Source: Candidatus Latescibacterota bacterium
GTDB taxonomy: Bacteria; Latescibacterota; UBA2968; UBA8231
Assembly (NCBI GenBank): GCA_965221775.1
Contig: CBDCSU010000005.1
Span: 1 to 64,000 of the forward strand
DNA length: 64,000 bases
Reading direction: 5' to 3'
The notes beneath the pieces are model-generated. The model did not search any database. It was not told the DNA's origin and saw only the letters and a program-made list of their open reading frames with translations. Made by a program: the position numbers and the translations under genes. Of this stretch, positions 29,305-64,000 are shown piece by piece (position 1 is the first letter of the stretch; every line of letters begins with the position of its first letter).

Positions 29305-29380
<76 letters not shown>

Positions 29381-42834: not shown

Positions 42835-42896
42835 TGATGCATGGATTATAGATCATCCGGTTGGTGTCAGAATCACATGTATTGCTCAGATTCCGA

Positions 42897-44171
42897 ATGA
42901 TGGCCCGGCCAACCAGGGGTCCTGCGCGGGGCTCCTCGACCGCGGCCGTGGCCGCTCTCCTCTGTCTGGTGACGGTCCGCGGCTCGGCCTCAGGCGAGTC
43001 CCCCGGGGAGACGCCCTTCCAGCTGAGCGGGTACGGCGAGATCAACTACTGGCGGTTCGACTACGGCCCCGACCAGAAGAGCCGGCCCGAGGGCTCGGCC
43101 CCCGACGACCGCGCCCTGATCGACGTGACCCGCCTGGCCCTGGAGCTGGAGGTCGAGCTGCTGCCCCGGGTCGAGCTGGAGGCGGAGGTCGAGTTCGAGC
43201 ACGGGGGGACCGGCGGCGCCATGGAGCTGGAGTACGAGGAGTTCGGCGAGTTCGAGCAGGAGGTCGAGAAGGGCGGCGAGGTGATCCTGGAGGAGCTGTA
43301 CGTGAAGCGCTCCTTCGGCGATCTCCTCGAGCTCGGCGCCGGGCACTTCTACGTCGCCGTGGGGTGGATCTCCAGCCTCTACCAGCCCCTCGATCACTAC
43401 GGCACGGTGCGCCCCGAGGCCGAGACGGCGGTGATCCCCGCCCTGTGGCACGAGACCGGCGTCGAGGCTTCGGGCCGCCTGCGGCGGTGGCGCTGGCGGC
43501 TGCAGCTGATCAACGGACTCGATGCGACCGGTTTCAGCTCCCAGCGGTGGGTCGCCGGCGGCCACCAGCTGCGCTTCGAGCAGGTCCGGGCCGACCGCCT
43601 CGCCATGGTGGGCCGGGTGGACTTCGAGCCCGTCCGCGGTGCGCTGGTGGGCGTCTCCCTCTACCGGGGCGACAGCGCCGGCAACCGCCCCAAGCCGGAC
43701 CTCAAGGGCACCGATGCCCACGTCACCATCGCCGAGGTGCACGCCCGCCTCGACCGGGACCGCCTGCGGGCGACGGGACTCTTCCTCCGCGGGCATCTGG
43801 AGAACGCCGCCGCCGTGAGCGCCCGCAACCGCACTCTCTCCAACAACCTCGAGGTGCTGCGCAGCCCCGTGGCCAGCGCCGCCCACGCCCTCTGGCTCGA
43901 GGCCGGGTACGACATCCTGCCGTGGCTGGCCGCCCGCCCCGGCGAGCGCCTCGACCTCTTCGCCCGCCTCGACGACTACGACACCATGGCCGAGGTGCCG
44001 GAGGGGTTCTTCGACAACCCCCGGTTCGACCGGCGGGTGTACACGGTGGGCCTCAACTACGCCGCCGCCGGCAAGCTGGTGCTCAAGGCCGACTACGCCA
44101 TGCGCCGGCTCGGGGCGGCGCGTTTCAACGACGAGAACACCCTGGGCCTGGCCCTCGGATTCCAGTTCTGA
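42897..44171 (+). CDS. Outer-membrane beta-barrel protein associated with iron uptake (start approximate)
   Basis: Signal-like N-terminus, E.EFEHGG.G...E.E..E.GE.E.EVEKGGE motif, amphipathic strands, C-terminal LGFQF. Confidence 0.8.
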   Translation: MMARPTRGPARGSSTAAVAALLCLVTVRGSASGESPGETPFQLSGYGEINYWRFDYGPDQKSRPEGSAPDDRALIDVTRLALELEVELLPRVELEAEVEFEHGGTGGAMELEYEEFGEFEQEVEKGGEVILEELYVKRSFGDLLELGAGHFYVAVGWISSLYQPLDHYGTVRPEAETAVIPALWHETGVEASGRLRRWRWRLQLINGLDATGFSSQRWVAGGHQLRFEQVRADRLAMVGRVDFEPVRGALVGVSLYRGDSAGNRPKPDLKGTDAHVTIAEVHARLDRDRLRATGLFLRGHLENAAAVSARNRTLSNNLEVLRSPVASAAHALWLEAGYDILPWLAARPGERLDLFARLDDYDTMAEVPEGFFDNPRFDRRVYTVGLNYAAAGKLVLKADYAMRRLGAARFNDENTLGLALGFQF

Positions 44172-44202: not shown

Positions 44203-45276
44203 ATGGCACATCGCCTGATCCACCTCGCCCTCACGGCGGCCCTCGTCCTCGGTCTGGCGGCCTGCGGCGACGACGACGACGACGTCGTCGGCCCCGGCAG
44301 CGAGGCGTACGACTTCGGGCCGGTCCTGTCCGACTTCACCAACAACGTGGTCATCCCCACCTACCGGGACCTCGATGCCGCGGCGGGGGCCCTGGCCGAT
44401 GCCGTGGCCGCCCTGCGGGAGAACCCCGGCGACGCCACCCTCACCGCCGCCCGCGACGCCTGGGTCGCCGCCCGCATCCCCTGGGAGGCGAGCGAGGGCT
44501 TCCTCTTCGGCCCCGTCGACTTCAACGGCTACGATCCGGCCCTCGACAGCTGGCCCGTCAACCGCACCGACCTCGACGGCGTCATGGCCAGCGACAACGA
44601 CCTCGGAACCGAGTACGTGGACGGCCTCGACGGCACCCTGAAGGGCTTCCACACCATCGAGTACCTGCTGTATGACGAGGGCGGCAGCAAGACCGCCGCC
44701 GATTTCACCGGGCGCCAGTTCGACTACCTCGTGGCCAGCACCCGGCTCCTGGCGCAGACGGCGGAGGCCCTGCACTCCAGCTGGGTCCCCTCGGGCGGGA
44801 ACTTCGGGGCCAAGGTCATCGAGGCCGGCTCCGGCAGCGACGTCTACCCCTCGCAGCGGTCGGCGGCGCAGGAGATCGTCAACGGCATGGTCGGGATCTG
44901 CGACGAGGTGGCCAACGGCAAGATCGCCGATCCCTTCACCGAGCAGGACCCCCGGCTCGTGGAGTCCCAGTTCAGCTTCAACTCCCTGGCCGACTTCCAG
45001 AACAACATGCGCAGCGTCTGGAACGCCTATACCGGCGACTACGGCGGCAACGACGGCCGCGGCCTCGACGAGTTCGTCGCCTCGCGCGACAGCGCTCTCG
45101 ACAGCCGCCTGAAGAGCGAGATCCGGGCGTCGATCGACGAGATCGGCCACATCAGCAACCCCTTCCGCGACGCCATCGCCACCGACGCGGCCCAGATCGA
45201 GACGGCGCAGCAGGCGATCGCCAAGGTGCAGCAGACCCTCGAGGGGGATGTCCTGCCCCTGGTGCTCGCCGAGTAG
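44203..45276 (+). CDS. Imelysin-family (M75/IrpA-like) iron-regulated lipoprotein
   Basis: Lipobox LAAC, WE.SE.FLFGP, LDSWP, GFHTIEYLL, ES.FS.NS. Confidence 0.9.
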   Translation: MAHRLIHLALTAALVLGLAACGDDDDDVVGPGSEAYDFGPVLSDFTNNVVIPTYRDLDAAAGALADAVAALRENPGDATLTAARDAWVAARIPWEASEGFLFGPVDFNGYDPALDSWPVNRTDLDGVMASDNDLGTEYVDGLDGTLKGFHTIEYLLYDEGGSKTAADFTGRQFDYLVASTRLLAQTAEALHSSWVPSGGNFGAKVIEAGSGSDVYPSQRSAAQEIVNGMVGICDEVANGKIADPFTEQDPRLVESQFSFNSLADFQNNMRSVWNAYTGDYGGNDGRGLDEFVASRDSALDSRLKSEIRASIDEIGHISNPFRDAIATDAAQIETAQQAIAKVQQTLEGDVLPLVLAE

Positions 45277-45281
45277 AGGGG

Positions 45282-46688
45282 TTGGTTGTTCCCGGGGGGC
45301 GGCCATCGGGCCGCCCCTGGTACGCCGGCGCCCTCCTGTTGCTGGGCGCCTGCGGCGACGGCGGCCCCTCCGGACCGGAGCCGGACCCGGCTGCGGACAA
45401 GGCCCTGTCCGGGGGGGCCGCCACCGTCTTCGACGCCGCCAGCACCGCCTTCGAGAACCCACTGCCCGGTCTCGACGGCGAGCAGTTGTCCCGCTTTCTC
45501 GACGGGGACGCCGACTTCGAGGCGATCTTCGTCAGCGCCCCCGCCGAGGTCAACGGCGGCCTCGGTCCGGTCTTCAACCAGACCTCCTGCGCCGGCTGCC
45601 ACGGCCGCGACGGGCGCGGCCGCTCGGGGTTCGGAGCGACCTCGCCCTTCATCGGCTCCTCCCTCATGCGGGTCAGCCTTCCCGGCGCCGGCTCCGAGCA
45701 TCCAGGCGCCCCGGCGCCGGTGCCGGGGTTCGGCGTGCAGATCGGCGACCGGGCGATCTTCGGGGTCACTCCCGAGGCGCGCGTGGAGGTGAGCTACTTC
45801 GAGGAGCAGGGCCGCTTCGACGACGGCGGGACCTACACCCTGCGGCACCCGACCTACCACATCATCGACCCCTACACGGAGTGGCCCGCGGGGGTGCTCA
45901 CCTCGGCGCGCATGGCGCCTCCCGTCTTCGGCCGGGGCCTGCTGGCGGCGGTGGAGGAAGCCGAGATCCTGGCCCTCGCCGACCCGGGGGACGCCGACGG
46001 GGACGGCGTCTCGGGGCGCCCCAACCACGTCTTCGACGTGGCCGCCGGGCGCACGGTCCTCGGCCGCTTCGGGTGGAAGGCCAACAACCCCACCCTGCTG
46101 CAGCAGGTGGCCGCCGCCTACAGCCAGGACATGGGCATCACCACCCCTTACTTCCCGCGCGAGTCGGCCGCCGGCCAGCCCCAGGCCGACGGCCTCACCG
46201 ACGACCCCGAGCTGCCCCGGGAGATCCTCGACGACGTCGTGTTCTACATCGCCACCCTCGCCGTCCCCGCCCGTCGCGGCCTGGACGACCCCGAGGCCCT
46301 GCGCGGCGAGGAGCTGTTCGAGACCGCCGGCTGCGCCACCTGCCACGTGCCCACCCTGCGCACCGGGCCGGACGAAGTCGCCGACCTGTCGAACCAGGTC
46401 ATCCATCCCTACACCGACCTGCTGCTCCACGACATGGGGGACGAGCTGGCCGACGACCGCCCCGACTACGAGGCCGACGGGCGCGAGTGGCGGACGCCGC
46501 CCCTGTGGGGCATCGGCCTGACGGCGACGGTGAACGGCGTCCCCGCCTACCTCCACGACGGCCGCGCCTCCACCCTCATGGAGGCGATCATGTTCCACGG
46601 CGGCGAGGGCGAGAAGTCGAGAGAGGCGGTGAGGCGGATGAGCGCCGCGGAGCGCAAGGCGCTGATCGCCTTCCTCAACTCGTTGTAG
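45282..46688 (+). CDS. Di-haem oxidoreductase family (DUF1111) lipoprotein
   Basis: LGAC lipobox, CAGCH and CATCH, GRFGWKA, TDLLLHDMG, LHDGRA. Confidence 0.9.
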   Translation: MVVPGGRPSGRPWYAGALLLLGACGDGGPSGPEPDPAADKALSGGAATVFDAASTAFENPLPGLDGEQLSRFLDGDADFEAIFVSAPAEVNGGLGPVFNQTSCAGCHGRDGRGRSGFGATSPFIGSSLMRVSLPGAGSEHPGAPAPVPGFGVQIGDRAIFGVTPEARVEVSYFEEQGRFDDGGTYTLRHPTYHIIDPYTEWPAGVLTSARMAPPVFGRGLLAAVEEAEILALADPGDADGDGVSGRPNHVFDVAAGRTVLGRFGWKANNPTLLQQVAAAYSQDMGITTPYFPRESAAGQPQADGLTDDPELPREILDDVVFYIATLAVPARRGLDDPEALRGEELFETAGCATCHVPTLRTGPDEVADLSNQVIHPYTDLLLHDMGDELADDRPDYEADGREWRTPPLWGIGLTATVNGVPAYLHDGRASTLMEAIMFHGGEGEKSREAVRRMSAAERKALIAFLNSL

Positions 46689-46776
46689 GCTGGGAGGATC
46701 AGCGCCGCTCGGGGCGTGATCCCGAGCCTGGGCCAGGGCGGAGCGTGCTCCCGCCGCGTCTGCAGGGCCCGCGGTG

Positions 46777-47508
46777 TTACCGGGGCGGCAGGGAGACGCG
46801 CAGGTGGCCGGGAGCCCCGAAGTGGGGCGAGGCCTTCAACCCGAGGCCGAGGAACAGCCCCTGCCGCGCCCAGAAGACCAGGGGCCCCGCCTCCGGGGTG
46901 CGCAGGTCCACGCCCCGCGCGTAACCCCGCCCCGGCGCGGGGAGGGTATCCGGGCCCCTCGACTCGGGAAGCCCCGGGGAGCCGTACTCCCACGGGGCGC
47001 GGGCGACGCCGGTGACCACCACCTCTCCTCCCAGCCGCGCGATCCACAGGGACAGCCGCAGGGTCGGGTGCAGGCGCTCCCACTCGCCGCGCAGCTCCAG
47101 GGTCCGGAACCCCGCCTCCGGGAAGTGGGTCACCGACAGGCACCCGGCGGCCACCAGCAGGATGGGGACCGCCGCCATGAGCAGCAGGGCCCGCCGCGGG
47201 GAGGGCAGGCCGAAGGCCAGGCAGAGGGCTCCGGAGAGCGCCAGACCTCCGGCCAGCAGCCCGCCCGCCAGCGCCATCCACTCGGCCTCCGGGTAGCGCT
47301 GCAGGATGGCCAGCTGCACGCGCCCGGTGACCACCAGGGCCGCCGCCAGTCCCAGGCCGAGGCGCACCAGGCACCCGGGCAGGCGGGCCAGCGCGACGAA
47401 GGGGGCCGCGCTCCGGCGCCGCGCCGGCGGGGCCGGGTCGAAGCCGCGGGCGGATCCGGCCTCCGGGAGCTCCCCCGGGGCCGGACGCACCTCCTCCACG
47501 GCGCTCAC
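46777..47508 (-). CDS. Membrane protein with a degenerate M15/DD-peptidase-like domain
   Basis: 3 TM segments then LHPTLRL...VVTGVAR...GVDLRT...GHLRVSL; GTGA overlap with the upstream gene. Confidence 0.55.
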   Translation of the reverse strand: MSAVEEVRPAPGELPEAGSARGFDPAPPARRRSAAPFVALARLPGCLVRLGLGLAAALVVTGRVQLAILQRYPEAEWMALAGGLLAGGLALSGALCLAFGLPSPRRALLLMAAVPILLVAAGCLSVTHFPEAGFRTLELRGEWERLHPTLRLSLWIARLGGEVVVTGVARAPWEYGSPGLPESRGPDTLPAPGRGYARGVDLRTPEAGPLVFWARQGLFLGLGLKASPHFGAPGHLRVSLPPR

Positions 47509-48914
47509 GAGCCGCTCGCGGGCGGGGGGTCGGTCCCCTCGCGGTGGCGGGAATCGATGCGGTCCAGCTTCTCGCTCAGGGCGATCATCACGTCCTGGGT
47601 GTCGGTCATGCGCGACTCGAGGGCGGCGAGGCGGTCCGTGAGGCCCGGGGGGTCCGGCTGGGTACGGCGGCGGACCACGTAGACCGCCCCCAGGCCGACG
47701 GCCAGCCCCAGCAGGCATCCTCCGAGGAGCACGAGCCAGTCGTCGCGTCCGGAGTCCCCCCGCAGTTCCCGCCGCAGGGCCTGCAGCAACTCGTCCTCAC
47801 GAGGACCGGCGTCCGCACCCATGGGACCGCCGGGCGATCCCCACGGAACCGTCCGGTGGTCCCAGGTGGCGGGACCCGGCGCATCGGTCCCGAGCATCCG
47901 CGCATCGGCCCGGGAGATGGCCCCCGCCGCCTGCTCCAGCCTCCGGGCCAGGGGATGGGAATGCGGTCGGGACTGCCTGGCCGCGGCTCTCTCGATCGCC
48001 GCGATCCAGACATCCGGATGCTCTCTCAGCCAGGTCTCCAGGTAAGCCTCCATCGCCTCGGCGTCGAACCCCGCCGACCAGTCCTCCGGCGCCAGCACGA
48101 GACGGCCCACCCGGTCGTCGCCCACCATCTTGATCGACCGCGGGGGCCCCCAGGGCACCCAGGAGGCGGTCTCCTCACAGCAGGCGGTCGGAGTAGGAGA
48201 GACCACGGAACCCCGGGGCGGCCCGTCGCCGTCGACGACGACCACGTCGAAACCGATCATCCCGCCGCCCTCGAGGCGGACCGCCCGGCCGGGGTCGGGG
48301 TTCATCGCCGTATAGCCGTGCCTCGGATCGGTCCGCGGATCGGCCGGCAAGCCGGAGCGCACCTGCACGCCCCACTCGTAGGTGGTGATCCTGCCGTCGC
48401 GGCGCAGCCAGGCGCCGCGGGACCTCCTGTCGACCCGGAGGTTGCGGTGGACCCCCCTGCGGTCGAAGCTGGTATAGGTGACCCGCCCCGGCACGAGGGC
48501 GTACTGGATCGGAGTGTGGTCCGACGACACGAGCCCGGAGACGTAGATCTCGCAGGCGTCGGTCTGTGACACCATCCAGTCCGAATAGAGGATATCGTCG
48601 CGCACCTCCACGGCCACGTAGAGCAGCTGCTCCTCCGGGTCGTACCCCACCCGGAAGGAGGGGCTGAGGTCCTGGCTGGTGTCGAGGTTCGTCGCCTCGG
48701 TGTCGGTGGGGCCGTAGGCGCCGAACTCGTTGCGAATCGGCAGGGACGGCATCTCCGGCGGCCAGTCGGACAGATCCCCGTCGACGGTGATGCCGGAGAG
48801 GGGCAGGGCCAGGGCCAGGTGGTCGGGCAGCTCCGCCCGCGCCAGGGGCGGTCCCGCAAGGCTCAACCCCGCCAGGACGACGGCGAGATGCAGGGGCGGG
48901 CAGGGTCGAGGCAT
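47505..48914 (-). CDS. Secreted CBM9/DOMON-like domain protein with C-terminal TM and cytoplasmic coiled coil
   Basis: Signal peptide, ITVDGDLSDW, YD....LYVAVEVRDD, YEW, IGFDVVVVD.D; TM WLVLLGGCLLGLAVGLGAVYVV. Confidence 0.78.
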   Translation of the reverse strand: MPRPCPPLHLAVVLAGLSLAGPPLARAELPDHLALALPLSGITVDGDLSDWPPEMPSLPIRNEFGAYGPTDTEATNLDTSQDLSPSFRVGYDPEEQLLYVAVEVRDDILYSDWMVSQTDACEIYVSGLVSSDHTPIQYALVPGRVTYTSFDRRGVHRNLRVDRRSRGAWLRRDGRITTYEWGVQVRSGLPADPRTDPRHGYTAMNPDPGRAVRLEGGGMIGFDVVVVDGDGPPRGSVVSPTPTACCEETASWVPWGPPRSIKMVGDDRVGRLVLAPEDWSAGFDAEAMEAYLETWLREHPDVWIAAIERAAARQSRPHSHPLARRLEQAAGAISRADARMLGTDAPGPATWDHRTVPWGSPGGPMGADAGPREDELLQALRRELRGDSGRDDWLVLLGGCLLGLAVGLGAVYVVRRRTQPDPPGLTDRLAALESRMTDTQDVMIALSEKLDRIDSRHREGTDPPPASGS

Positions 48915-48931
48915 AACTGTTCTCCGGGGGG

Positions 48932-49300
48932 TCAGGCCAGGTGTCCGTAGCGGCGCCGGTCCAGCTTGTCGGCCATATCTATCATGACTCCCTGAAGATC
49001 GGTCAACTGCCGGTCGATGCGGTCCATGCGGCCCCGCAGCTCCTCGGACCGGGATCCGGCCGCCGCCTCGGCCGGCATCCACGCCGAGAGCCGCAGGCCG
49101 CCGGCGTCGGTGAAGGCCCCGCAGAGGATGAGGATCAGGTCGATGAGCGACCAGATGCCGAAGCCTCCGAGGGTGAGCACCATCAACAGGCCGGTGCCCA
49201 TCTTGCCGACGTAGAACCGGTGCGCGCCGATCCAGCCGAGGAAGAAGCAGAGCAGCGCCGCCGCCAGGCGCGAACGAGTGGAGTGCTCGGAGCCGGTCAT
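48932..49300 (-). CDS. TM2-domain protein with C-terminal coiled coil
   Basis: SRLAAALLCFFLGWIGAHRFYVGK.GTG...TLGGFGIW..ID; ATGA overlap with pspA. Confidence 0.92.
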   Translation of the reverse strand: MTGSEHSTRSRLAAALLCFFLGWIGAHRFYVGKMGTGLLMVLTLGGFGIWSLIDLILILCGAFTDAGGLRLSAWMPAEAAAGSRSEELRGRMDRIDRQLTDLQGVMIDMADKLDRRRYGHLA

Positions 49301-50028
49301 CGGGAACCCTCCCCTGTCTTTTCGCCGCGCGGGCGCAGGGCGGCCAACTCTTCATCGACCCGCCGGCGCATCTCGAGTTCCTCGAAGCGGCGCCCGAGGA
49401 CGCCGTCCTCCCCGAGAAGGGTGCGGCGCGCCTCGGCCGAGGCCTCCCCTGCCACCTCGGCCAGTTCCAGGCGCTGGCGCATGCGGTCGAACTCGCTGCG
49501 GTTGTGCTCCAGGCGCTGCCCCAGGCGGTCGAACTCGGCCGCCGGATCGCCTTCGAGATCGTCGCGCCGGAAGCCCACCTGGCGGCTGGCGCGGATGCGC
49601 GCGATCAGGGCGGCCTGGCGGTTGCGGGCCTCCTCCAGCTCCTGGCGCAGGGTCACCAGCTGACCCCGCAGCTGCGACGCCGTCCGGCGCCCCTCCTCGA
49701 GGGCCGGCTCGATGTCGTCGGCCGCCTGGTCGCTGAGCACCTTGCGGGCCAGCACCTGGCGGGCCAGCTCCTCGTCGCCGGCATCGAGGGCCTGGCGGGC
49801 CCGGCGCTCCAGCCGGCGGCTGCGCTCGCGGTGCTCCTCCTGGTCCTTCTCCAACCGGCGCTGGCCGGCCACGGCGGCGCCGGTGGCGCTGACGACCCGG
49901 TCGACCTCGGCCTCCATGTCGCGCACCATCTGGCGCACCATCCTCTCCGGGTCCTCCAGGTGATCGAGCAGGTCGTGGACGTTCGACCTGACGATACCGG
50001 AGATCCGGGACAACGTCGATTTGACCAT
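49297..50028 (-). CDS. pspA: PspA/IM30 family protein
   Basis: LSRISGIVRSNVHDLLDHLEDPERMVRQMVRDME, AL.AGDEELAR, VDEELAALR; GGAGG RBS before ATG 50028. Confidence 0.93.
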   Translation of the reverse strand: MVKSTLSRISGIVRSNVHDLLDHLEDPERMVRQMVRDMEAEVDRVVSATGAAVAGQRRLEKDQEEHRERSRRLERRARQALDAGDEELARQVLARKVLSDQAADDIEPALEEGRRTASQLRGQLVTLRQELEEARNRQAALIARIRASRQVGFRRDDLEGDPAAEFDRLGQRLEHNRSEFDRMRQRLELAEVAGEASAEARRTLLGEDGVLGRRFEELEMRRRVDEELAALRPRGEKTGEGSR

Positions 50029-50071
50029 CTCTGCCTCCAGTTCGCTCCCGAGGGGTTTGCTTGCTTCCTGA

Positions 50072-50087
50072 TGCAATCCGGGTGCCA
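50072..50087 (-). promoter_or_regulatory. Sigma-54 promoter of pspA
   Basis: Minus strand TGGCAC-CCGGA-TTGCA, an exact -24/-12 consensus. Confidence 0.85.
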
Positions 50088-50169
50088 TCGCCTCCCCCAT
50101 TGGGGAAGACGAGACTCAACTTGCTGTCATACAGTCCATTGCAGGGAAAACCGCATGCTTGTCGGAAGG

Positions 50170-50213
50170 TGGCGGACCGGCTGGATCCGCCATCTCGATG
50201 GCGGATTTCGCCA
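50170..50213. promoter_or_regulatory. Candidate upstream activator sequences for a PspF-like enhancer-binding protein
   Basis: TGGCGGATTTCGCCA (50199-50213) and TGGCGGA-N9-TCCGCCA (50170-50192), about 85-125 bp upstream of the -24 box. Confidence 0.55.
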
Positions 50214-50318
50214 CCGGCGGACAGCGGATGGGGGAGCGAGGCCGCCCCGGGGTCTCGCCTCCGAGGCTTCCTCCTCGGGCCGCCCCTCCCCGCGCCGGCA
50301 GCCGATCCCGCGCAGGGA

Positions 50319-50553
50319 TCAGCCGGGGTACCCGGCCTCGCACAACCCCTGTCCGCCCCCGGTGACGGCCGGGGCCGGACCCAGGGTGCCCCGCGCCCGC
50401 CGCTTCTGCACCCAGGGCGTCTCCACGCCGTACTTGCGGCACAGCCGTCCGAAGCTGCGCAGGGTGATGCCGAGGGCGGCGCAGGCCTCCTGGGTTGCTC
50501 TTGTACATGCGGGCGACGCGCTCGATCGTCGCCTTGTCGAATCCCCGATTCAC
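50319..50553 (-). pseudogene. Small Fis-like HTH protein with a 1-nt frameshift near 50493 (pseudogene or sequencing error)
   Basis: AGGAGG RBS and GTG: MNRGFDKATIERVARMYKSN, then in another frame QEACAALGITLRSFGRLCRKYGVETPW; removing one C from AACCC restores a ~77 aa ORF. Confidence 0.7.
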
Positions 50554-50618
50554 GGCTCCCTCCTGGTGAAGGATGGACGCCGGGGCCGGTCCCCGGCGAC
50601 TGAGGTCGAGGACGGTAC

Positions 50619-50634
50619 AGCAACCCTCGTGCCG
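50619..50634 (-). promoter_or_regulatory. Second sigma-54-like promoter, upstream of the small HTH gene
   Basis: Minus strand CGGCAC-GAGGG-TTGCT (GG-N10-GC). Confidence 0.6.
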
Positions 50635-50762
50635 GCCGCCGCGGGAAGCCTGCCTCAGAGAGCGGACCGGGAAGGAGCCTTCGGAGAGCGTTGCAGCGGT
50701 GGCCGCATCCGCCACCGTCCGGCGGCAGCCGCCGGAAGCGGGAGGGTTCCGCGAAGGGTCTC

Positions 50763-51998
50763 TTAGAGGAGGATCTCTCGCCCCTGGAGGAAGACGCGCT
50801 CCACGCGGAGCCCCTCGTCGAGGACGAGCAGGTCGGCGGTCTTGCCCGCCTCGAGGCTGCCGACGCGGGCGTCGATCCCGAGGATCCGCGCCGGCGTGAG
50901 GGAGGCCATGCGCACCACCTCGGCCAGGGGCGCGCCGGTCAGTTGGCGGAAGGTCCGCACCATGTGGTCCATGCCCTGGCACGACGAGGCCGGACCGCCG
51001 CCGTCCGGCGTCAGGCAGACGTCGCCGCGGCGCACGAAGGGCTCGCCGCCGGCCTCGGGGCCGAAGCGGTACTCGCCGTCGGGCCGGTCGAGGGCGCGGT
51101 TGCAGTCGGTCACCAGGGCGAGGCGCTCCGGCCCCTTGATCTTGTACGCCAGGCGCAGGAGTCCGGCGTCGAGATGGACGCCGTCGGCGATCACCTCGGT
51201 GGACAGCCCGTCGAGGAGCAGGGCCGCCTCGAGCACGCCGGCGCGCATCGGCCAGGGCTCCCGGCGGCGCAGCTTGGTCTTGTCCGACATGGCGCAGAAC
51301 AGGTGGTCCACGTGGGCCACACCCCAGGGCAGGCTGGCCTCCACCTGCGCCAGGGTGGCGTTGGAGTGGCCGGCGTGGAGCCGGATGCCCCGCCCCCGGG
51401 CGGCGCGGGCGAAGGCCTCGGCGCCGGGCAGTTCCGGGGCCACGGTGGCGCAGGCGATGGCGCCGCCCTCGGGCAGCCCGCCGAAGGCGAGATACGCCTC
51501 GAACTCCCCCGGCCGCGGCGGGCGCAGAGGGCCGGCCGGGTGGCAGCCCTGGGCCCCGGGGCCGAAGTAGGGGCCGTAGAAGTGGGCCCCCGCCACGCGG
51601 CTGCCGGCGCCGGAGCCTTCGCCGAAGAGACCGAATCCGCCGCTCGCGGCGGCCCGGGCGCAGACCCGCAGGGCCGCGAGGATCTGCTCGTGGAGGGCCA
51701 CTGTCGTCGTCGGAGCCACGGTGGTGGTGCCGTGGCGCAGATGGGCTCGCAGGACGGTGCGGAAGGCCGCGGCGGTGCCGTCCATGAAGTCGGCGCCCCC
51801 GCCGCCGTGACAGTGGAGGTCGACGTACCCGGGGGCGACCAGCCGGCCGTCGAGGTCGATCTCGGCGGCTCCCCTCGAGGCCTCCTTGTCGGCGGCGGGA
51901 CCGGCGGCGGCGATACGGCCGGCCGCGTCGACGAGGAGGCCGCCCTCCTCGACGCGGTCGGGCAGGATCAGGGAGCCGCCGCGCAGCAGCGAGGGCAT
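50763..51998 (-). CDS. nagA: N-acetylglucosamine-6-phosphate deacetylase
   Basis: PGYVDLHCHGGGG, APE, GHSNAT, HLFCAM, IADGVH, LVTD, ASLTPA. Confidence 0.88.
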   Translation of the reverse strand: MPSLLRGGSLILPDRVEEGGLLVDAAGRIAAAGPAADKEASRGAAEIDLDGRLVAPGYVDLHCHGGGGADFMDGTAAAFRTVLRAHLRHGTTTVAPTTTVALHEQILAALRVCARAAASGGFGLFGEGSGAGSRVAGAHFYGPYFGPGAQGCHPAGPLRPPRPGEFEAYLAFGGLPEGGAIACATVAPELPGAEAFARAARGRGIRLHAGHSNATLAQVEASLPWGVAHVDHLFCAMSDKTKLRRREPWPMRAGVLEAALLLDGLSTEVIADGVHLDAGLLRLAYKIKGPERLALVTDCNRALDRPDGEYRFGPEAGGEPFVRRGDVCLTPDGGGPASSCQGMDHMVRTFRQLTGAPLAEVVRMASLTPARILGIDARVGSLEAGKTADLLVLDEGLRVERVFLQGREILL

Positions 51999-60259: not shown

Positions 60260-61426
60260 CTACTCGGAGATGTAGACGCCGTCGACGAGGACGAAGTCGC
60301 CGGCCGCCGCCTTCGGACCTCCCAGCGACAGGGGCGAGGTCACCGCCGAAAGGTCCAGCCCCCGGGCGGCGAAGTCGGCCAGCGGGATCCGCAGGGAGTG
60401 CCACTCCCCGTCGGCGGCGTACCCGTAGTCGCCGGCGGGAACGATGTGGCGGTCGTCCGAGGCGCCGTTCATGCCGACTTCGATGACGGCGAAGCTCTCG
60501 GAGCGGAAGCTCACGTGCAGGCTCTTCCACCCGGACAGGTCGCGCGGCTCGCTCCAGTGCACGCCCATCCCCCACCAGTCGCCGCCGGCGTGGACCAGGC
60601 GGTGGGCCGCCTGTCCCTCCAGGGCTTCGTCGGTCTCCTGCATCGAGACCGTGTTGTCGTAGAGGTAGAGGTTCGCCGTGGTGTTGTCGATCTCCACCAC
60701 CTCCGAAGAGCTGCCCTCGTAGAACACGCCGATGCTCAGGCGGCGGCCGGCCTCCGCCGCGGCCGTGGTCCCCGGCGTCAGGTCGAAGTAGAGGTTGTCG
60801 ATGAGGACGAAGTCGCCGGCCTCCGCCTTGGCACCTCCCAGCGACAAGGGCGAGGTCACCGCCGCCAGGTCCAGCCCCCGGGCGGCGAAGTCGGCCAGCG
60901 GGATCTGCAGGGTGTGCCACTCGCCGTCGGCGGCGTACCCGTAGTCGCTGGCGCGCACCACGTGGCGGTCGTCCGACGCGCCGTTGAGGCCGATCTCTAC
61001 CTCGGGGAGACTCTCGGAGCGGAAGCTCACGTGCAGGCTCACCCACCCGGACAGGTCCCGGGGCTCGCTCCAGTGGAGGCCCATGCCCCACCAGTCGCCG
61101 CCGGCGTGGACCAGCCGGTGCGCCGCCCGGCCCTCCAGGGGCTCCTCCACCTCCTCCACCGAGACCGTGTTGTCGTAGAGGTACATGTGGGAGGTGGTGT
61201 TGTCGATCTCCACCAGCTCCGAGGATCCTCCCTCGTAGAAGGCGCCCACGGCCAGGCGCTGCTCGCCGGCCTCGAAGGGATCCGGCCCCGGCAGTCCGGG
61301 CTCCTCGCCGTCCACGGGGGTCACCGCCAGGTCGAAGCTCTCCTGGGACTCGTAGTCGGAGTCGTCCAGCCCCGACCGGCAGGCCGCCAGCAGCAGCAGC
61401 AGGAGCGCCAGGGCGCGGGCCGTCAT
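60260..61426 (-). CDS. Lipoprotein with two tandem ~172-aa CBM-like beta-sandwich modules
   Basis: Lipobox LAAC; GDWWGMG.HWSEPRDLSGW.SLHVSFRS and YGYAADGEWH.L.IPLADF each occur twice. Confidence 0.82.
   Translation of the reverse strand: MTARALALLLLLLAACRSGLDDSDYESQESFDLAVTPVDGEEPGLPGPDPFEAGEQRLAVGAFYEGGSSELVEIDNTTSHMYLYDNTVSVEEVEEPLEGRAAHRLVHAGGDWWGMGLHWSEPRDLSGWVSLHVSFRSESLPEVEIGLNGASDDRHVVRASDYGYAADGEWHTLQIPLADFAARGLDLAAVTSPLSLGGAKAEAGDFVLIDNLYFDLTPGTTAAAEAGRRLSIGVFYEGSSSEVVEIDNTTANLYLYDNTVSMQETDEALEGQAAHRLVHAGGDWWGMGVHWSEPRDLSGWKSLHVSFRSESFAVIEVGMNGASDDRHIVPAGDYGYAADGEWHSLRIPLADFAARGLDLSAVTSPLSLGGPKAAAGDFVLVDGVYISE
60270..61260. repeat. Intragenic tandem duplication with a 516-bp period
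   Basis: e.g. CCCACCAGTCGCCGCCGGCGTGGACCAG at 60571 and 61087. Confidence 0.9.
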
Positions 61427-61992
61427 CGCCTCACCGCCTTGTCGTTGCCGTGCGGGTCCTGGACCAGCAGCCAGCCGGCGGCGGGGGGCCCCCCGAGGTC
61501 GAGGATGCCGCGGTACGCCGCGGTCACCAGCTCGAAGGAGAAGGTGCCGGTGGCGTCCCAGCTGGCCGCGTCGGGGAAGTTGTCGAGGACCGACTGGTAG
61601 GCGGCCAGGGCCATCTCGCGCACCGCCGGCAGGTCCTGCTGCCGGGCCAGGCCCCGCGTCCAGATGCGGCCGAGGTTGACGGCGACGTAGTACTGGTGCT
61701 CGCCGGTGGGCTCGTTGGCCAGCCAGGTGGCCCAGCTGTAGTAGGCGGCCACGGCGTTTCCCGTGCTCTCGATGGCCCACTTGGTCTCCGGCCCGCTGGA
61801 GGCGCGGGCGAAGGGGTTGCCGGGGTCGTCGAGGACGGCCTTGCTCGGGTGGATGCCGGCGCTCTCGTCGAAGAGCCGCAGCGGCTCCTCGCTCATGGGG
61901 CTGCCGTAGCGGAAGGGGCCCGGCTCGGAGCAGCCGGCAGCCAGCAGCACCGGAAGAAGGGCCAGCAGCGGGATGGCGCTCGTGGGTCTCAT
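61423..61992 (-). CDS. Helical (TPR-like) lipoprotein of unknown function
   Basis: Lipobox LLAAGC; helical AAYYSWATWL, AYQSVLDNFPD segments. Confidence 0.72.
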   Translation of the reverse strand: MRPTSAIPLLALLPVLLAAGCSEPGPFRYGSPMSEEPLRLFDESAGIHPSKAVLDDPGNPFARASSGPETKWAIESTGNAVAAYYSWATWLANEPTGEHQYYVAVNLGRIWTRGLARQQDLPAVREMALAAYQSVLDNFPDAASWDATGTFSFELVTAAYRGILDLGGPPAAGWLLVQDPHGNDKAVRR

Positions 61993-61999
61993 GCTCGCC

Positions 62000-64000
62000 T
62001 CACAGGCCGACGTGGACGTAGAGGCCGACCTCGACCTCGGCGCCGGTGGCTCCGGGATCGCCGGGATCGGCCACGTACTCGGGCGAGTTCTCGTCGAGGG
62101 TGCGCACCTGGGCCCGCAGGCCGAAGCGCGTCGAGGCGCCCTCCAGGCCGGCCGGCTTCAGCCCGTACGAGACGTCGCCGTACCACTGCAGCGGGTAGGT
62201 CAGGTTGAAGTCCCGGTGGAAGTCGTACGGCCCCCAGTCGTCGAGGCGCAGACGGGTGCGCGCGTCGACGGTGTGCCACCACAGGCGCAGGTCGCCGCCG
62301 TAGCGGCGGATGCGGCGCGGGTCGTCCCCCCGGGGCTCGCCTTCGCCCGCCAGCAGGGTGGCCGCCAGGCGCAGGCCGCGGCCGGGGTTGTGGACCGTGT
62401 GCAGCTTCGCCTCCCACTCGTCGCCGGCCGGGGGCGTCTGCCCGAAGGGCACGACGGCGCCGTTGGCCAGGGTGAAGGTGTGGGCGTCGCGGCGTTCCGG
62501 GTGGTGGCGGTACCACAGGTCGAGGGCGGCGACGAAGGGGGCGTCCTCGCGGATGTCGCGGTCCCAGGTGTGGAACCAGGTCCCCGGCGTCGGATCGTAG
62601 ACCAGCAGCAACTCGCCGGCGGCGGTCTCGCGGTTGTCGAGGACGACGAAGGGGTCGTCGAGGATGTTGCGCGGCCGGACGGCGGGATAGTAGAGGCCGG
62701 TGCGGCTGCTGTAGTGATCGTCGATGCGCGGGTTGGCGGGCAGGACCGGCTTCTGGTAGAGGACCTGCGGCGAGATCTCCAGCAGCCCCAGCCGGTACGA
62801 CGCCCCCGACGAGAGCGCCCAGTGGTTGCCGCGTCCGCTCTCCTTCAGCGACCAGCCGGTGAGCAGGGTGGCGCCCGAGTAGCCGCCGTCGGCGACGAGG
62901 CCTTGCAGGCTGCCCTGGCCGTACCAGCGCACGGCGCCCTCCCAGGTCAGGCGCACGCGGCCGCCGAAGGTGTCGCCCCACTTGACCTCGTCGTCGATCA
63001 CCTCCCAGCCGGAGTCGAGGTAGCCGCGGCCCGAGGTCTCCCGGACCCAGGTGAAGGCGTCGCCGACCTTCGGCGAGCCGGAGAAGATGCCGCCCGCCTC
63101 GAGGGTCAGGGGCCTGGCGTCCCAGGAGAAGTAGAGGGTGGTGCGCCGGTTGAGCTGCTCGGGCACGGCGAAACTGGTCTGCGCCCCCGAGGCCTCCGCC
63201 AGGTCCTCGTGGTGGATCACCGACCAGCTCCAGGCCCCGACCGCGCGCTGGTACTTGGCCAGCACCGCGGCGTTGGCCCCCCACCACAGCTCCGGCCCGA
63301 CGGCGACCTTCCAGCCCTGCCAGGGGCCCTTGCCGGTGATCTCGAAGCCGTTGGGCGCCTGGCCGTTGTAGGTGTCGAGGTTGGGCCCGTAGTTGGCCTC
63401 CGGGTAGAGGCCGAAGAAGTCGCCCTCGTAGCCCCAGTGGAAGTGGCCGGTGCGGAAGAAGCCGTCGAGGGTGAAGCGCGGCCGCTCGATGGTGAACTCG
63501 ACGGCATGGACGGCGAAGCGGTCGACCACTTGCCGGGGCTCGCGCGAGGGCGCCTGTCCCGGCGCCGGCACGACCCGCTCGAGGGCGCGGTTCTCGTAGA
63601 AGATGTTGTCGAGGCGGTTCTGGCCCACGGCGCCGACGCCGTGCAGGGAGAGGCGGCCCCGCAGGTCGCCGCTGTCGACCTCCAGGTCGGTCCAGAACGA
63701 CTCGGTGTGGCCGAAGCGCTCCTCCTCGCCGCGCTCGGTGCGCTCGTCGCCGCTGCTGATGCTCGACTCGTAGCGCATGCGCACGTCGCCGAGGCGCACG
63801 GCGCGCAACTGCTTCACCTCGTCGAGGGCGCGGCCGGTGGCGTAGCGGTGCGAGTAGTCGGAGAGCCGGATCTGGCCGAAGCTCCGGCGGATGACCTCCG
63901 CCGTCGTCGCCTCGGCGTAGGGGTCGAGGCGGAAGGCCCGCTGCAGGACGTAGTAGGAGGTGCGCGGCGTCACCGGGATGAAGCCGCGGTCGTCGGAGGG
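62000..64000 (-). CDS. Large outer-membrane beta-barrel-like protein, probably the C-terminal part of a glycoside hydrolase-barrel fusion (partial)
   Basis: Frame open to the window edge; Trp/Tyr-rich alternating strands, RTGHFHWGYEGDFFGLYPEANYG, DDWGPYDFHRDFNLTYP, terminal strand VEVGLYVHVGL; the leading TPRTSYYVLQRAF resembles the end of a GH-A TIM barrel. Confidence 0.7.
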   Translation of the reverse strand, partial: PSDDRGFIPVTPRTSYYVLQRAFRLDPYAEATTAEVIRRSFGQIRLSDYSHRYATGRALDEVKQLRAVRLGDVRMRYESSISSGDERTERGEEERFGHTESFWTDLEVDSGDLRGRLSLHGVGAVGQNRLDNIFYENRALERVVPAPGQAPSREPRQVVDRFAVHAVEFTIERPRFTLDGFFRTGHFHWGYEGDFFGLYPEANYGPNLDTYNGQAPNGFEITGKGPWQGWKVAVGPELWWGANAAVLAKYQRAVGAWSWSVIHHEDLAEASGAQTSFAVPEQLNRRTTLYFSWDARPLTLEAGGIFSGSPKVGDAFTWVRETSGRGYLDSGWEVIDDEVKWGDTFGGRVRLTWEGAVRWYGQGSLQGLVADGGYSGATLLTGWSLKESGRGNHWALSSGASYRLGLLEISPQVLYQKPVLPANPRIDDHYSSRTGLYYPAVRPRNILDDPFVVLDNRETAAGELLLVYDPTPGTWFHTWDRDIREDAPFVAALDLWYRHHPERRDAHTFTLANGAVVPFGQTPPAGDEWEAKLHTVHNPGRGLRLAATLLAGEGEPRGDDPRRIRRYGGDLRLWWHTVDARTRLRLDDWGPYDFHRDFNLTYPLQWYGDVSYGLKPAGLEGASTRFGLRAQVRTLDENSPEYVADPGDPGATGAEVEVGLYVHVGL

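Follow-up and report, generated by a model that had tools for sequence, protein, structure and literature searches.

The window analysed here, the first 64,000 nucleotides (nt) of contig CBDCSU010000005.1 with a G+C content of 70.7%, comes from a Gemmatimonadota/Latescibacterota-type bacterium of the FCB group and carries a four-gene phage-shock-protein (psp) operon on its minus strand (Table 1). The first gene, pspA, is followed by genes for a TM2-domain membrane protein, for a single-pass membrane protein with a CBM9-like ectodomain and for a protein with three membrane helices (gene 4). The pspA stop codon is overlapped by the ATG of the TM2 gene (ATGA), and the CBM9 gene starts 17 nt past the TM2-gene stop. 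For gene 4 we assume the GTG at 47508, which lies in a GTGA overlap, rather than the start of the longest open reading frame (ORF); the same start in a GTGA overlap is present in three related loci (L001, L003 and L004). A search for an intrinsic terminator past gene 4 was negative. A first-pass annotation of the window had described this order of overlapping or closely spaced genes and had pointed out that the TM2 protein and the CBM9-like protein, otherwise unrelated, end in the same coiled-coil tail. Both descriptions are correct. Judged by sequence, the locus is a Psp operon with new partners and with a new, widespread and uncatalogued C-terminal module.

Table 1 Features of the psp locus (positions are those of the window)
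Feature	Position	Strand	Remarks
Four-gene psp operon	46777-50100	minus	pspA, TM2 protein, CBM9-fold protein, protein with three membrane helices; tightly packed
pspA, 243 amino acids (aa), PspA/IM30 family	49297-50028	minus	Pfam PF04012
TM2-domain membrane protein with C-terminal tail, 122 aa	48932-49300	minus	Pfam TM2; two membrane helices
TM2-protein tail core	residues 88-115, 48956-49039	minus	part of 48932-49300
CBM9-fold single-pass protein, 469 aa	47505-48914	minus	predicted type I topology; predicted signal peptide, ectodomain, helical region, one membrane helix, tail
CBM9-protein tail core	residues 425-452, 47559-47642	minus	part of 47505-48914
Fourth gene, 243 aa	46777-47508	minus	about 35 residues predicted to be cytoplasmic, three membrane helices, C-terminal domain of about 110 aa
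Predicted sigma-54 promoter of the pspA operon, TGGCAC-N5-TTGCA, TGGCACCCGGATTGCA	50072-50087	minus	exact consensus match
Upstream activator-type site, perfect 18-bp palindrome CCGCCATCTCGATGGCGG with third half-site	50187-50204; half-site 50209-50214		unique, conserved
Small helix-turn-helix (HTH) gene, 64 aa when intact	50320-50555	minus	frameshifted in the window near 50494
Sigma-54-like element CGGCACGAGGGTTGCT, GG and GC kept	50619-50634	minus	one mismatch; about 81 nt upstream of the small HTH gene

The pspA product matches the Pfam PspA_IM30 profile with E=1.1e-31 (110.7 bits, cutoff 33.9), residues 6-233 being aligned with profile positions 3-216 of 220. The NCBIfam equivalog TIGR02977, which describes PspA of the enterobacterial type, scored 96.2 bits at a cutoff of 242.95; the protein is a member of the family that stands outside the enterobacterial orthologue class. 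The TM2 assignment of the second protein is equally clear (PF05154, residues 8-56, E=1e-19, 70.9 bits, cutoff 27.9). The first-pass annotation had further stated that these partners stand in the place of pspB and pspC, and indeed the PspB and PspC models of Pfam and NCBIfam gave no match among the four operon proteins at E<=1, nor did the Pfam models match the two tails alone at E<=10. NCBIfam names none of the three proteins downstream of pspA. PADLOC found no defence system besides two coiled-coil noise matches for PspA.

The likeness of the two tails had been noticed on a pair of 16-residue segments. Both segments are present and 10 of 16 residues are identical by eye; BLASTP aligned the tails with 12/28 identical residues (E=2e-4 for the pair). 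Profiles were then compared in a search space of 2460 six-frame ORFs of the window and the related loci. A profile of 62 TM2-type tails alone found the CBM9 tail as the best non-self match (E=1.8e-6), and the converse profile, made of non-TM2 tails, found the TM2 tails (E=8e-10). Since each profile picks the other tail, we regard the two tails as homologous. The TM2 protein with its tail has at least 62 full-length relatives (those that carry a name are labelled as Gemmatimonadota or Latescibacteria), and in these 62 the tail is near-invariant (GRMDRIDRQLTDLQGV[ML]ID[ML]xxKLDRR). The tail core of the CBM9 protein is identical in 4/4 orthologues. Tails of the CBM9 type and those of the many small membrane proteins belong to a single family (66% identity across the 23 core positions) with the canonical form RL..IERRLTDTQDVMIALSEK.DR.E, a helix of about 30 residues and four heptads, in which the hydrophobic positions keep a clean 3-4 spacing throughout. 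An alignment was made of 123 non-TM2 tails, each representing a cluster at 50% identity. Of the 20 positions in the stretch E11-R30, 17 exceed 2.9 of 4.32 bits, and the non-core residues T, D, Q, D, S, E, K and D are among these 17. Such near-invariance of polar positions at 50% clustering suggests that the helix has a surface for a specific partner and is more than a generic zipper. The helix starts 8-30 residues past the last membrane helix and should for this reason be cytoplasmic; in the CBM9 protein the N-terminus resembles a signal peptide and an RRR motif comes after the membrane helix, both of which likewise point to an inside position of the tail. A word-indexed search for longer proteins with the P0002 tail gave 11 candidates, none of them at E<=10, and is uninformative because the two tails have no 5-residue word in common.

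The spread of the tail was determined with a profile of eight tails (window and related loci) that was run against 1.84 billion cluster representatives at 50% identity. It found 164 representatives at E<=1e-3, 19 of them at E<=1e-10; in almost all of them the tail is C-terminal and follows a membrane helix. By a rough classification of the 150 matches listed, 74 are small membrane proteins with one or two helices and the tail (a few being fragments of larger proteins), 39 are short pieces without a membrane helix, 20 are CBM9-like, three are TM2 proteins and one is of another kind; the remaining 13, long repeat proteins with multiple stretches, are probably unrelated. In the same 150 matches the motif starts at a median of 30 residues before the C-terminus (range 19-106), and the linker between membrane helix and tail in the small proteins measures 18-56 residues. 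The Pfam family CBM9_1 was found above its cutoff in 14 of the 84 tail proteins that were scanned, and 9/84 gave sub-threshold matches to the coiled-coil family DUF7310. The tail has no entry in Pfam, NCBIfam or the PDB, PDB sequence searches with tail alignments yielded nothing below E=0.03, and a small tail protein had no match in plasmids (tblastn). These data support a homologous, portable C-terminal module and speak against a chance likeness of coiled coils. The expectation that such a module would be fused to varied N-terminal domains was confirmed as to portability, but its range is narrow, with only three membrane architectures (TM2, CBM9-like and small, PspB-sized proteins).

One apparent further architecture was rejected. 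The protein P0164 (84 aa) consists of the end of an NtrC-type AAA+ activator and a canonical tail and is probably a chimera or misassembly: the tail is borne by 0/57 longer homologues, and the join sits in a common LNERLDEIER stretch. A comparison of P0164 with P0282 shows that the helix preceding the HTH of NtrC-type activators resembles the start of the tail.

Related loci were collected by a search that was anchored on the tail (narrow alignment A3, one pattern) and not on pspA. It returned seven loci, of which five are true (L001-L005). In 5/5 of these pspA stands immediately upstream of the TM2-tail gene, the PspA orthologues being 53-96% identical to that of the window. The full four-gene order is present in L001, L003 and L004, and L002 follows it up to the end of its contig just past the CBM9 gene. 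In L005, with a PspA of 53% identity, three of the four genes are present and the CBM9 gene is missing. Neither the window nor any locus contains a further tail. The two false positives were L006, in which the helix lies at the start of an ORF that we take to be a chorismate mutase, and L007, which reached only E=0.46 with the tail profile.

The exact sigma-54 promoter and the palindromic site upstream of it, both mentioned in the first-pass annotation, proved to be conserved in 6/6 loci (the window and L001-L005). The element TGGCACCCGGATTGCA is the sole exact TGGCAC-N5-TTGCW in 64 kb, and its 3' end is 44 nt away from the pspA ATG; across the six loci the element is placed 57-65 nt before the ATG. 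Its GG and GC elements are correctly spaced and it precedes pspA, which makes it a predicted promoter of the canonical Psp regulon type; no sigma-70-like site was found in 46500-50800. L004 alone has a second exact TGGCAC-N5-TTGCA at L004:8603-8618, between the small HTH gene and pspA. The palindrome CCGCCATCTCGATGGCGG is the only CCGCCA-N6-TGGCGG site in the window, and its centre precedes the inferred transcription start by about 134 nt. Together with the third half-site (TGGCG-N5-CCGCCA-N6-TGGCGG) it is kept in 6/6 aligned upstream regions including that of the divergent L005, whose flanks are otherwise unalignable, and the pattern looks like a predicted site of an enhancer-binding protein. 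Taken together, the sequence comparisons support a real and conserved sigma-54 pspA operon without a recognisable pspB or pspC. A PspF-like activator was looked for in the 64-kb window: the sigma-54 activator domain (Sigma54_activat, E<=1e-5) was found in 0/47 likely ORFs, and the pspF-type AAA+ activator gene that adjoins canonical psp operons is absent from this stretch.

Directly upstream of the operon lies the small HTH gene, which is intact in L001-L005 (61-64 aa). The window copy has one additional C within a run of Cs (AACCCAGG versus AACCAGG in 4/4 close relatives in a DNA alignment) and is thereby frameshifted, either through a homopolymer sequencing error or because it is a real pseudogene. 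Its Pfam matches are weak (RWP-RK, E=0.002; HTH_28, E=0.053), and the protein aligns weakly but end to end with the Fis-type HTH (HTH_8 end) of an NtrC-family activator (BLASTP, E=0.032). A sigma-54-like element, GGCAC-N5-TTGCT, occurs 81-83 nt before the start of the HTH gene in 5/6 loci, L005 being the exception. The HTH gene (window 50320-50560; L001:8570-8775) is nearly nucleotide-invariant across L001-L004, third codon positions included, whereas the neighbouring proteins of these loci are only 66-97% identical to those of the window. This suggests an extra constraint, for example an RNA or a regulatory overlap.

The CBM9-like protein matches Pfam CBM9_1 below the cutoff (E=0.012, 16.0 bits, cutoff 23.4). 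Its AlphaFold model, built from 20 aligned relatives, has a predicted local distance difference test (pLDDT) value of 74.6 and consists of a signal-peptide-like helix, a confident beta-sandwich (residues 33-274), a helical region and a membrane helix (391-417), after which the tail is modelled as a single long helix (425-459). The top structural matches found by Foldseek are solved CBM9 modules (7nwn, E=4.8e-9; 1i82_A, 1.3e-8; also 7nwo; range of the three 4.8e-9 to 1.8e-8; TM-score by target 0.75); more distantly the model also matches the haem-binding gamma subunit of ethylbenzene dehydrogenase (2ivf_C, E=6.9e-4). On the basis of this model the label 'CBM9/DOMON-like', given in the first-pass annotation, is correct as a fold; the role in glycan binding that went with it is an assumption.

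In the model of the gene 4 product (pLDDT 71.9), three membrane helices are followed by a small alpha/beta domain at the C-terminus. The protein belongs to no Pfam family and has no usable match in the ESM Atlas, and its C-terminal domain gave no fold match at E<=1e-3. Recurrent weak matches to Hedgehog-N (LAS fold; probability 0.5-0.85) give a hint of a LAS-type fold of this domain. In L005 (L005:10197-11006) the domain reads GYAHAVDL...DHLHISL. In the window (46777-47130, minus strand), L001 and L003 it reads GYAR.VDL...GHLRVSL with two histidines replaced by arginine, and in L004 one of the two is replaced. The H..D and H.H of L005, a pattern that we take to be the LAS motif, become R..D and H.R in the window. 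If the domain harbours a LAS-type metal site, the gene 4 protein of the window may be catalytically dead.

We propose the following model for the operon. PspA would be co-translated with three membrane proteins that take the place of PspB and PspC, and the tail helix would do the job of the leucine-zipper segments of enterobacterial PspB and PspC. Through their tails the membrane sensors would be joined into one membrane-proximal, cytoplasmic coiled-coil assembly that offers a conserved surface to a soluble protein, for which PspA is the most plausible candidate. Damage to the envelope or the membrane would be sensed either outside the cell, by the CBM9 domain and the gene 4 domain, or within the bilayer, by the TM2 domain, and would alter the binding of PspA; this in turn would alter the activity of a putative enhancer-binding activator at the conserved palindrome. 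The core of this model, namely that the tails are cytoplasmic coiled-coil helices which assemble the sensors and turn a conserved face to a soluble partner, PspA being the most plausible one, is our tentative preference, to which we would give slightly less than an even chance.

Several observations weigh against this model. The link between tail and pspA comes from this clade and from the TM2-type tail only. The 5/5 true loci represent about two independent lineages (four loci with 72-98% protein identity and one distant locus) and are consequently suggestive, not statistical. The linkage of the tail to pspA that had been anticipated in the first-pass annotation applies so far to the TM2-type tail and not to the large family of canonical (non-TM2) tails. 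In L005 a CBM9-tail gene is lacking, so that two tails per operon are unnecessary and the second tail gene is dispensable. The TM2-type tail moreover is a divergent branch with 42-45% of the 23 core positions in common with the canonical form, and this divergence, together with several surface differences, weakens the case for one common docking surface. The sigma-54 motif by itself is statistically unremarkable in a G+C-rich window: with one mismatch allowed there are 2 matches where 1.15 are expected, a count that 36 of 100 shuffles also attain. As no activator gene is present among the 47 ORFs of the window, the regulatory loop is conjecture. Finally, resemblance of the tail proteins to PspB and PspC at the level of sequence is slight. 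Pfam PspB matches 1/84 tail proteins (E=0.001, 19.5 bits, below the cutoff of 25.6); in NCBIfam, 2 of 26 small tail proteins match PspC (best E=0.01) and 1 of 26 matches PspB (E=0.019); and hhalign, run with the 26 small tail proteins against a shallow PspB profile of three sequences (E. coli, Klebsiella and Aeromonas), reported a probability of 15% over ten columns of the membrane helix only.

The main rival explanation takes the tail for a general homo-oligomerisation helix of small membrane proteins that makes no contact with PspA. Two tails would then be found here only because both membrane proteins act as oligomers, and PspA would be recruited, if at all, by the damage itself. The clean a/d heptad pattern across four heptads is what one would expect of such a helix; most members of the family are tiny and have nothing but a membrane helix and the tail, and L005 has a single tail gene. 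Weak PDB matches to the tail, which are not significant (E=0.04-0.9), are C-terminal coiled coils past the membrane helices of ion channels and point in the same direction. However, near-invariant non-core positions at 50% clustering seem to exceed the usual needs of a self-packing zipper, and in 5/5 true loci translation of the TM2-type tail gene is coupled to that of pspA. We consider this explanation somewhat unlikely. A bolder form of our own model, in which the canonical helix is a universal cytoplasmic tag that recruits PspA, the bacterial ESCRT-III, to sensors, is in our opinion doubtful. The tail proteins would then be an adaptor family of several phyla, the proteins of 60-120 aa would be the PspB equivalents of the FCB group and neighbouring phyla, and the TM2 and CBM9 fusions would be sensors that feed one common repair machinery.

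It is improbable that membrane helix and tail together are a very divergent PspB which became fused to TM2 and CBM9 domains in an otherwise ordinary PspA-PspB system. The layout is the same: within 60-120 aa, a membrane helix at the N-terminus precedes a cytoplasmic zipper. The one Pfam match (P0166) extends over profile positions 5-64 of 73, although it is below threshold, and there is the single NCBIfam match to PspB. The ESM-Atlas cluster nearest to a small tail protein, in which Latescibacterota is the commonest phylum, bears the automatic name 'Phage shock protein B family protein' (score 0.93), and a PspB cluster follows at 0.78; we regard this name as a lead only. On the other hand, 83/84 tail proteins have no PspB match at E<=0.1 and the two tails of the window have none at E<=10; the hhalign result also speaks against a relationship but is a weak test in view of the shallow profile. 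A PspB-like architecture (one N-terminal membrane helix and a cytoplasmic zipper helix in 70-120 aa) applies to the small tail proteins by sequence, but not to the two tail proteins of the window, which bear extra domains. In view of the hhalign result we have not filed the tail as PspB; its layout and context are like those of the PspB/PspC zipper. The first-pass annotation had allowed for the tail to be an ordinary Pfam homologue of PspB or PspC; a single sub-threshold match in 84 proteins argues otherwise.

Still less probable is a function of the tail as an amphipathic helix of the inner leaflet that senses lipid packing or curvature, similar to the N-terminal helix of PspA or to the role proposed for SHOCT-like domains, instead of a protein-protein module. 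The tail is membrane-proximal, its 28-residue core has a high hydrophobic moment (1.54), and membrane anchoring has been proposed for SHOCT-like domains in a PSP survey (PMC11237479). The tail proteins, however, are already anchored in the membrane, the polar face of the helix is highly charged and invariant, and the linker to the membrane helix varies in the small proteins over the range given above. A chance resemblance of two coiled coils, finally, for which the shortness of the segments and the modest pairwise E-value might be quoted, has next to no likelihood and is refuted as far as sequence statistics go, given the reciprocal best profile matches among 2460 ORFs and the same placement of both tails between the last membrane helix and the C-terminus.

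Outside the operon, a gene pair for an imelysin (Peptidase_M75) and a di-haem oxidoreductase (DHOR) at 44203-46688 (plus strand) converges on the end of the psp operon; this pairing is presumably typical of iron-uptake loci. The long ORFs at 42861-44171 (plus), 61423-61992 (minus) and 62000-63973 (minus) show a gene-like codon bias and match no Pfam family at E<=1e-5. A tRNA-Ala (CGC) at 29305-29380 (minus) is the sole Rfam or ARAGORN match in 64 kb.

To our knowledge, it is largely unknown outside Proteobacteria, Firmicutes and Actinobacteria how membrane repair of the PspA/ESCRT-III type is targeted in place and time. The present locus is a compact case, in which one sigma-54 operon with a conserved enhancer-type site combines two different putative sensors that carry one helix, and this helix defines a large uncatalogued family (164 clusters or more at 50% identity). 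If the tail is the contact to PspA (or to the activator), it would provide a sequence handle for Psp partners in many uncultured phyla and a first functional context for bacterial TM2 proteins. Should it be an oligomerisation helix only, it would still be a new domain family worth a database entry.

Lineage-specific small membrane anchors beside a pspA homologue are also found in LiaI/LiaF-LiaH of Bacillus and PspM/PspN of Actinobacteria (see also PMC11237479), and in this respect the window operon resembles these systems. LiaI/LiaF and PspM/PspN, however, are different families, are regulated by a two-component system or ClgR and not by sigma-54, and do not bear the tail helix as far as Pfam scans show. 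The main text of two PSP-wide surveys (PMC11237479 and PMC9239133) contains no mention of TM2 or Gemmatimonadota, CBM9 is absent from the main text of PMC11237479, the sole survey checked for it, and a search of the full-text literature on PspA together with 'TM2 domain' gave nothing relevant. The nearest concept to the tail is the SHOCT domain: SHOCT and SHOCT-like domains are described as short helical modules, usually at the C-terminus, that occur together with many unrelated domains, TM2 among them (PMC3581485); they recur in PSP gene neighbourhoods and are proposed to assemble or anchor membrane-associated complexes (PMC3581485, PMC11237479). Yet SHOCT is a two-helix unit, whereas the tail of the window is modelled as one continuous helix of 35 residues, and SHOCT (PF09851) matched neither the tails at E<=10 nor the 84 relatives at E<=0.1.

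In its general plan the locus is like the enterobacterial PspF-PspABC system. Both have a sigma-54 promoter, an upstream palindrome and pspA as the first gene (PMC9239133 and the E. coli locus itself), and in both pspA is followed by genes for small inner-membrane proteins, whose zipper-like helices are required for the signal to PspA in the enterobacterial case (PMC3068692). For E. coli, PspB and PspC are described as having putative leucine zippers, and the zipper of PspC is required for the interaction with PspA (PMC3068692). The window operon differs from the systems of E. coli and Yersinia in that an adjoining pspF and PspB/PspC family matches are lacking, its upstream neighbour is a 64-aa HTH gene, and the partners of PspA are a TM2 protein, a protein with a CBM9 ectodomain and a three-helix protein. 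While enterobacterial PspB and PspC are unrelated to each other, both zipper helices of the window operon are copies of one module.

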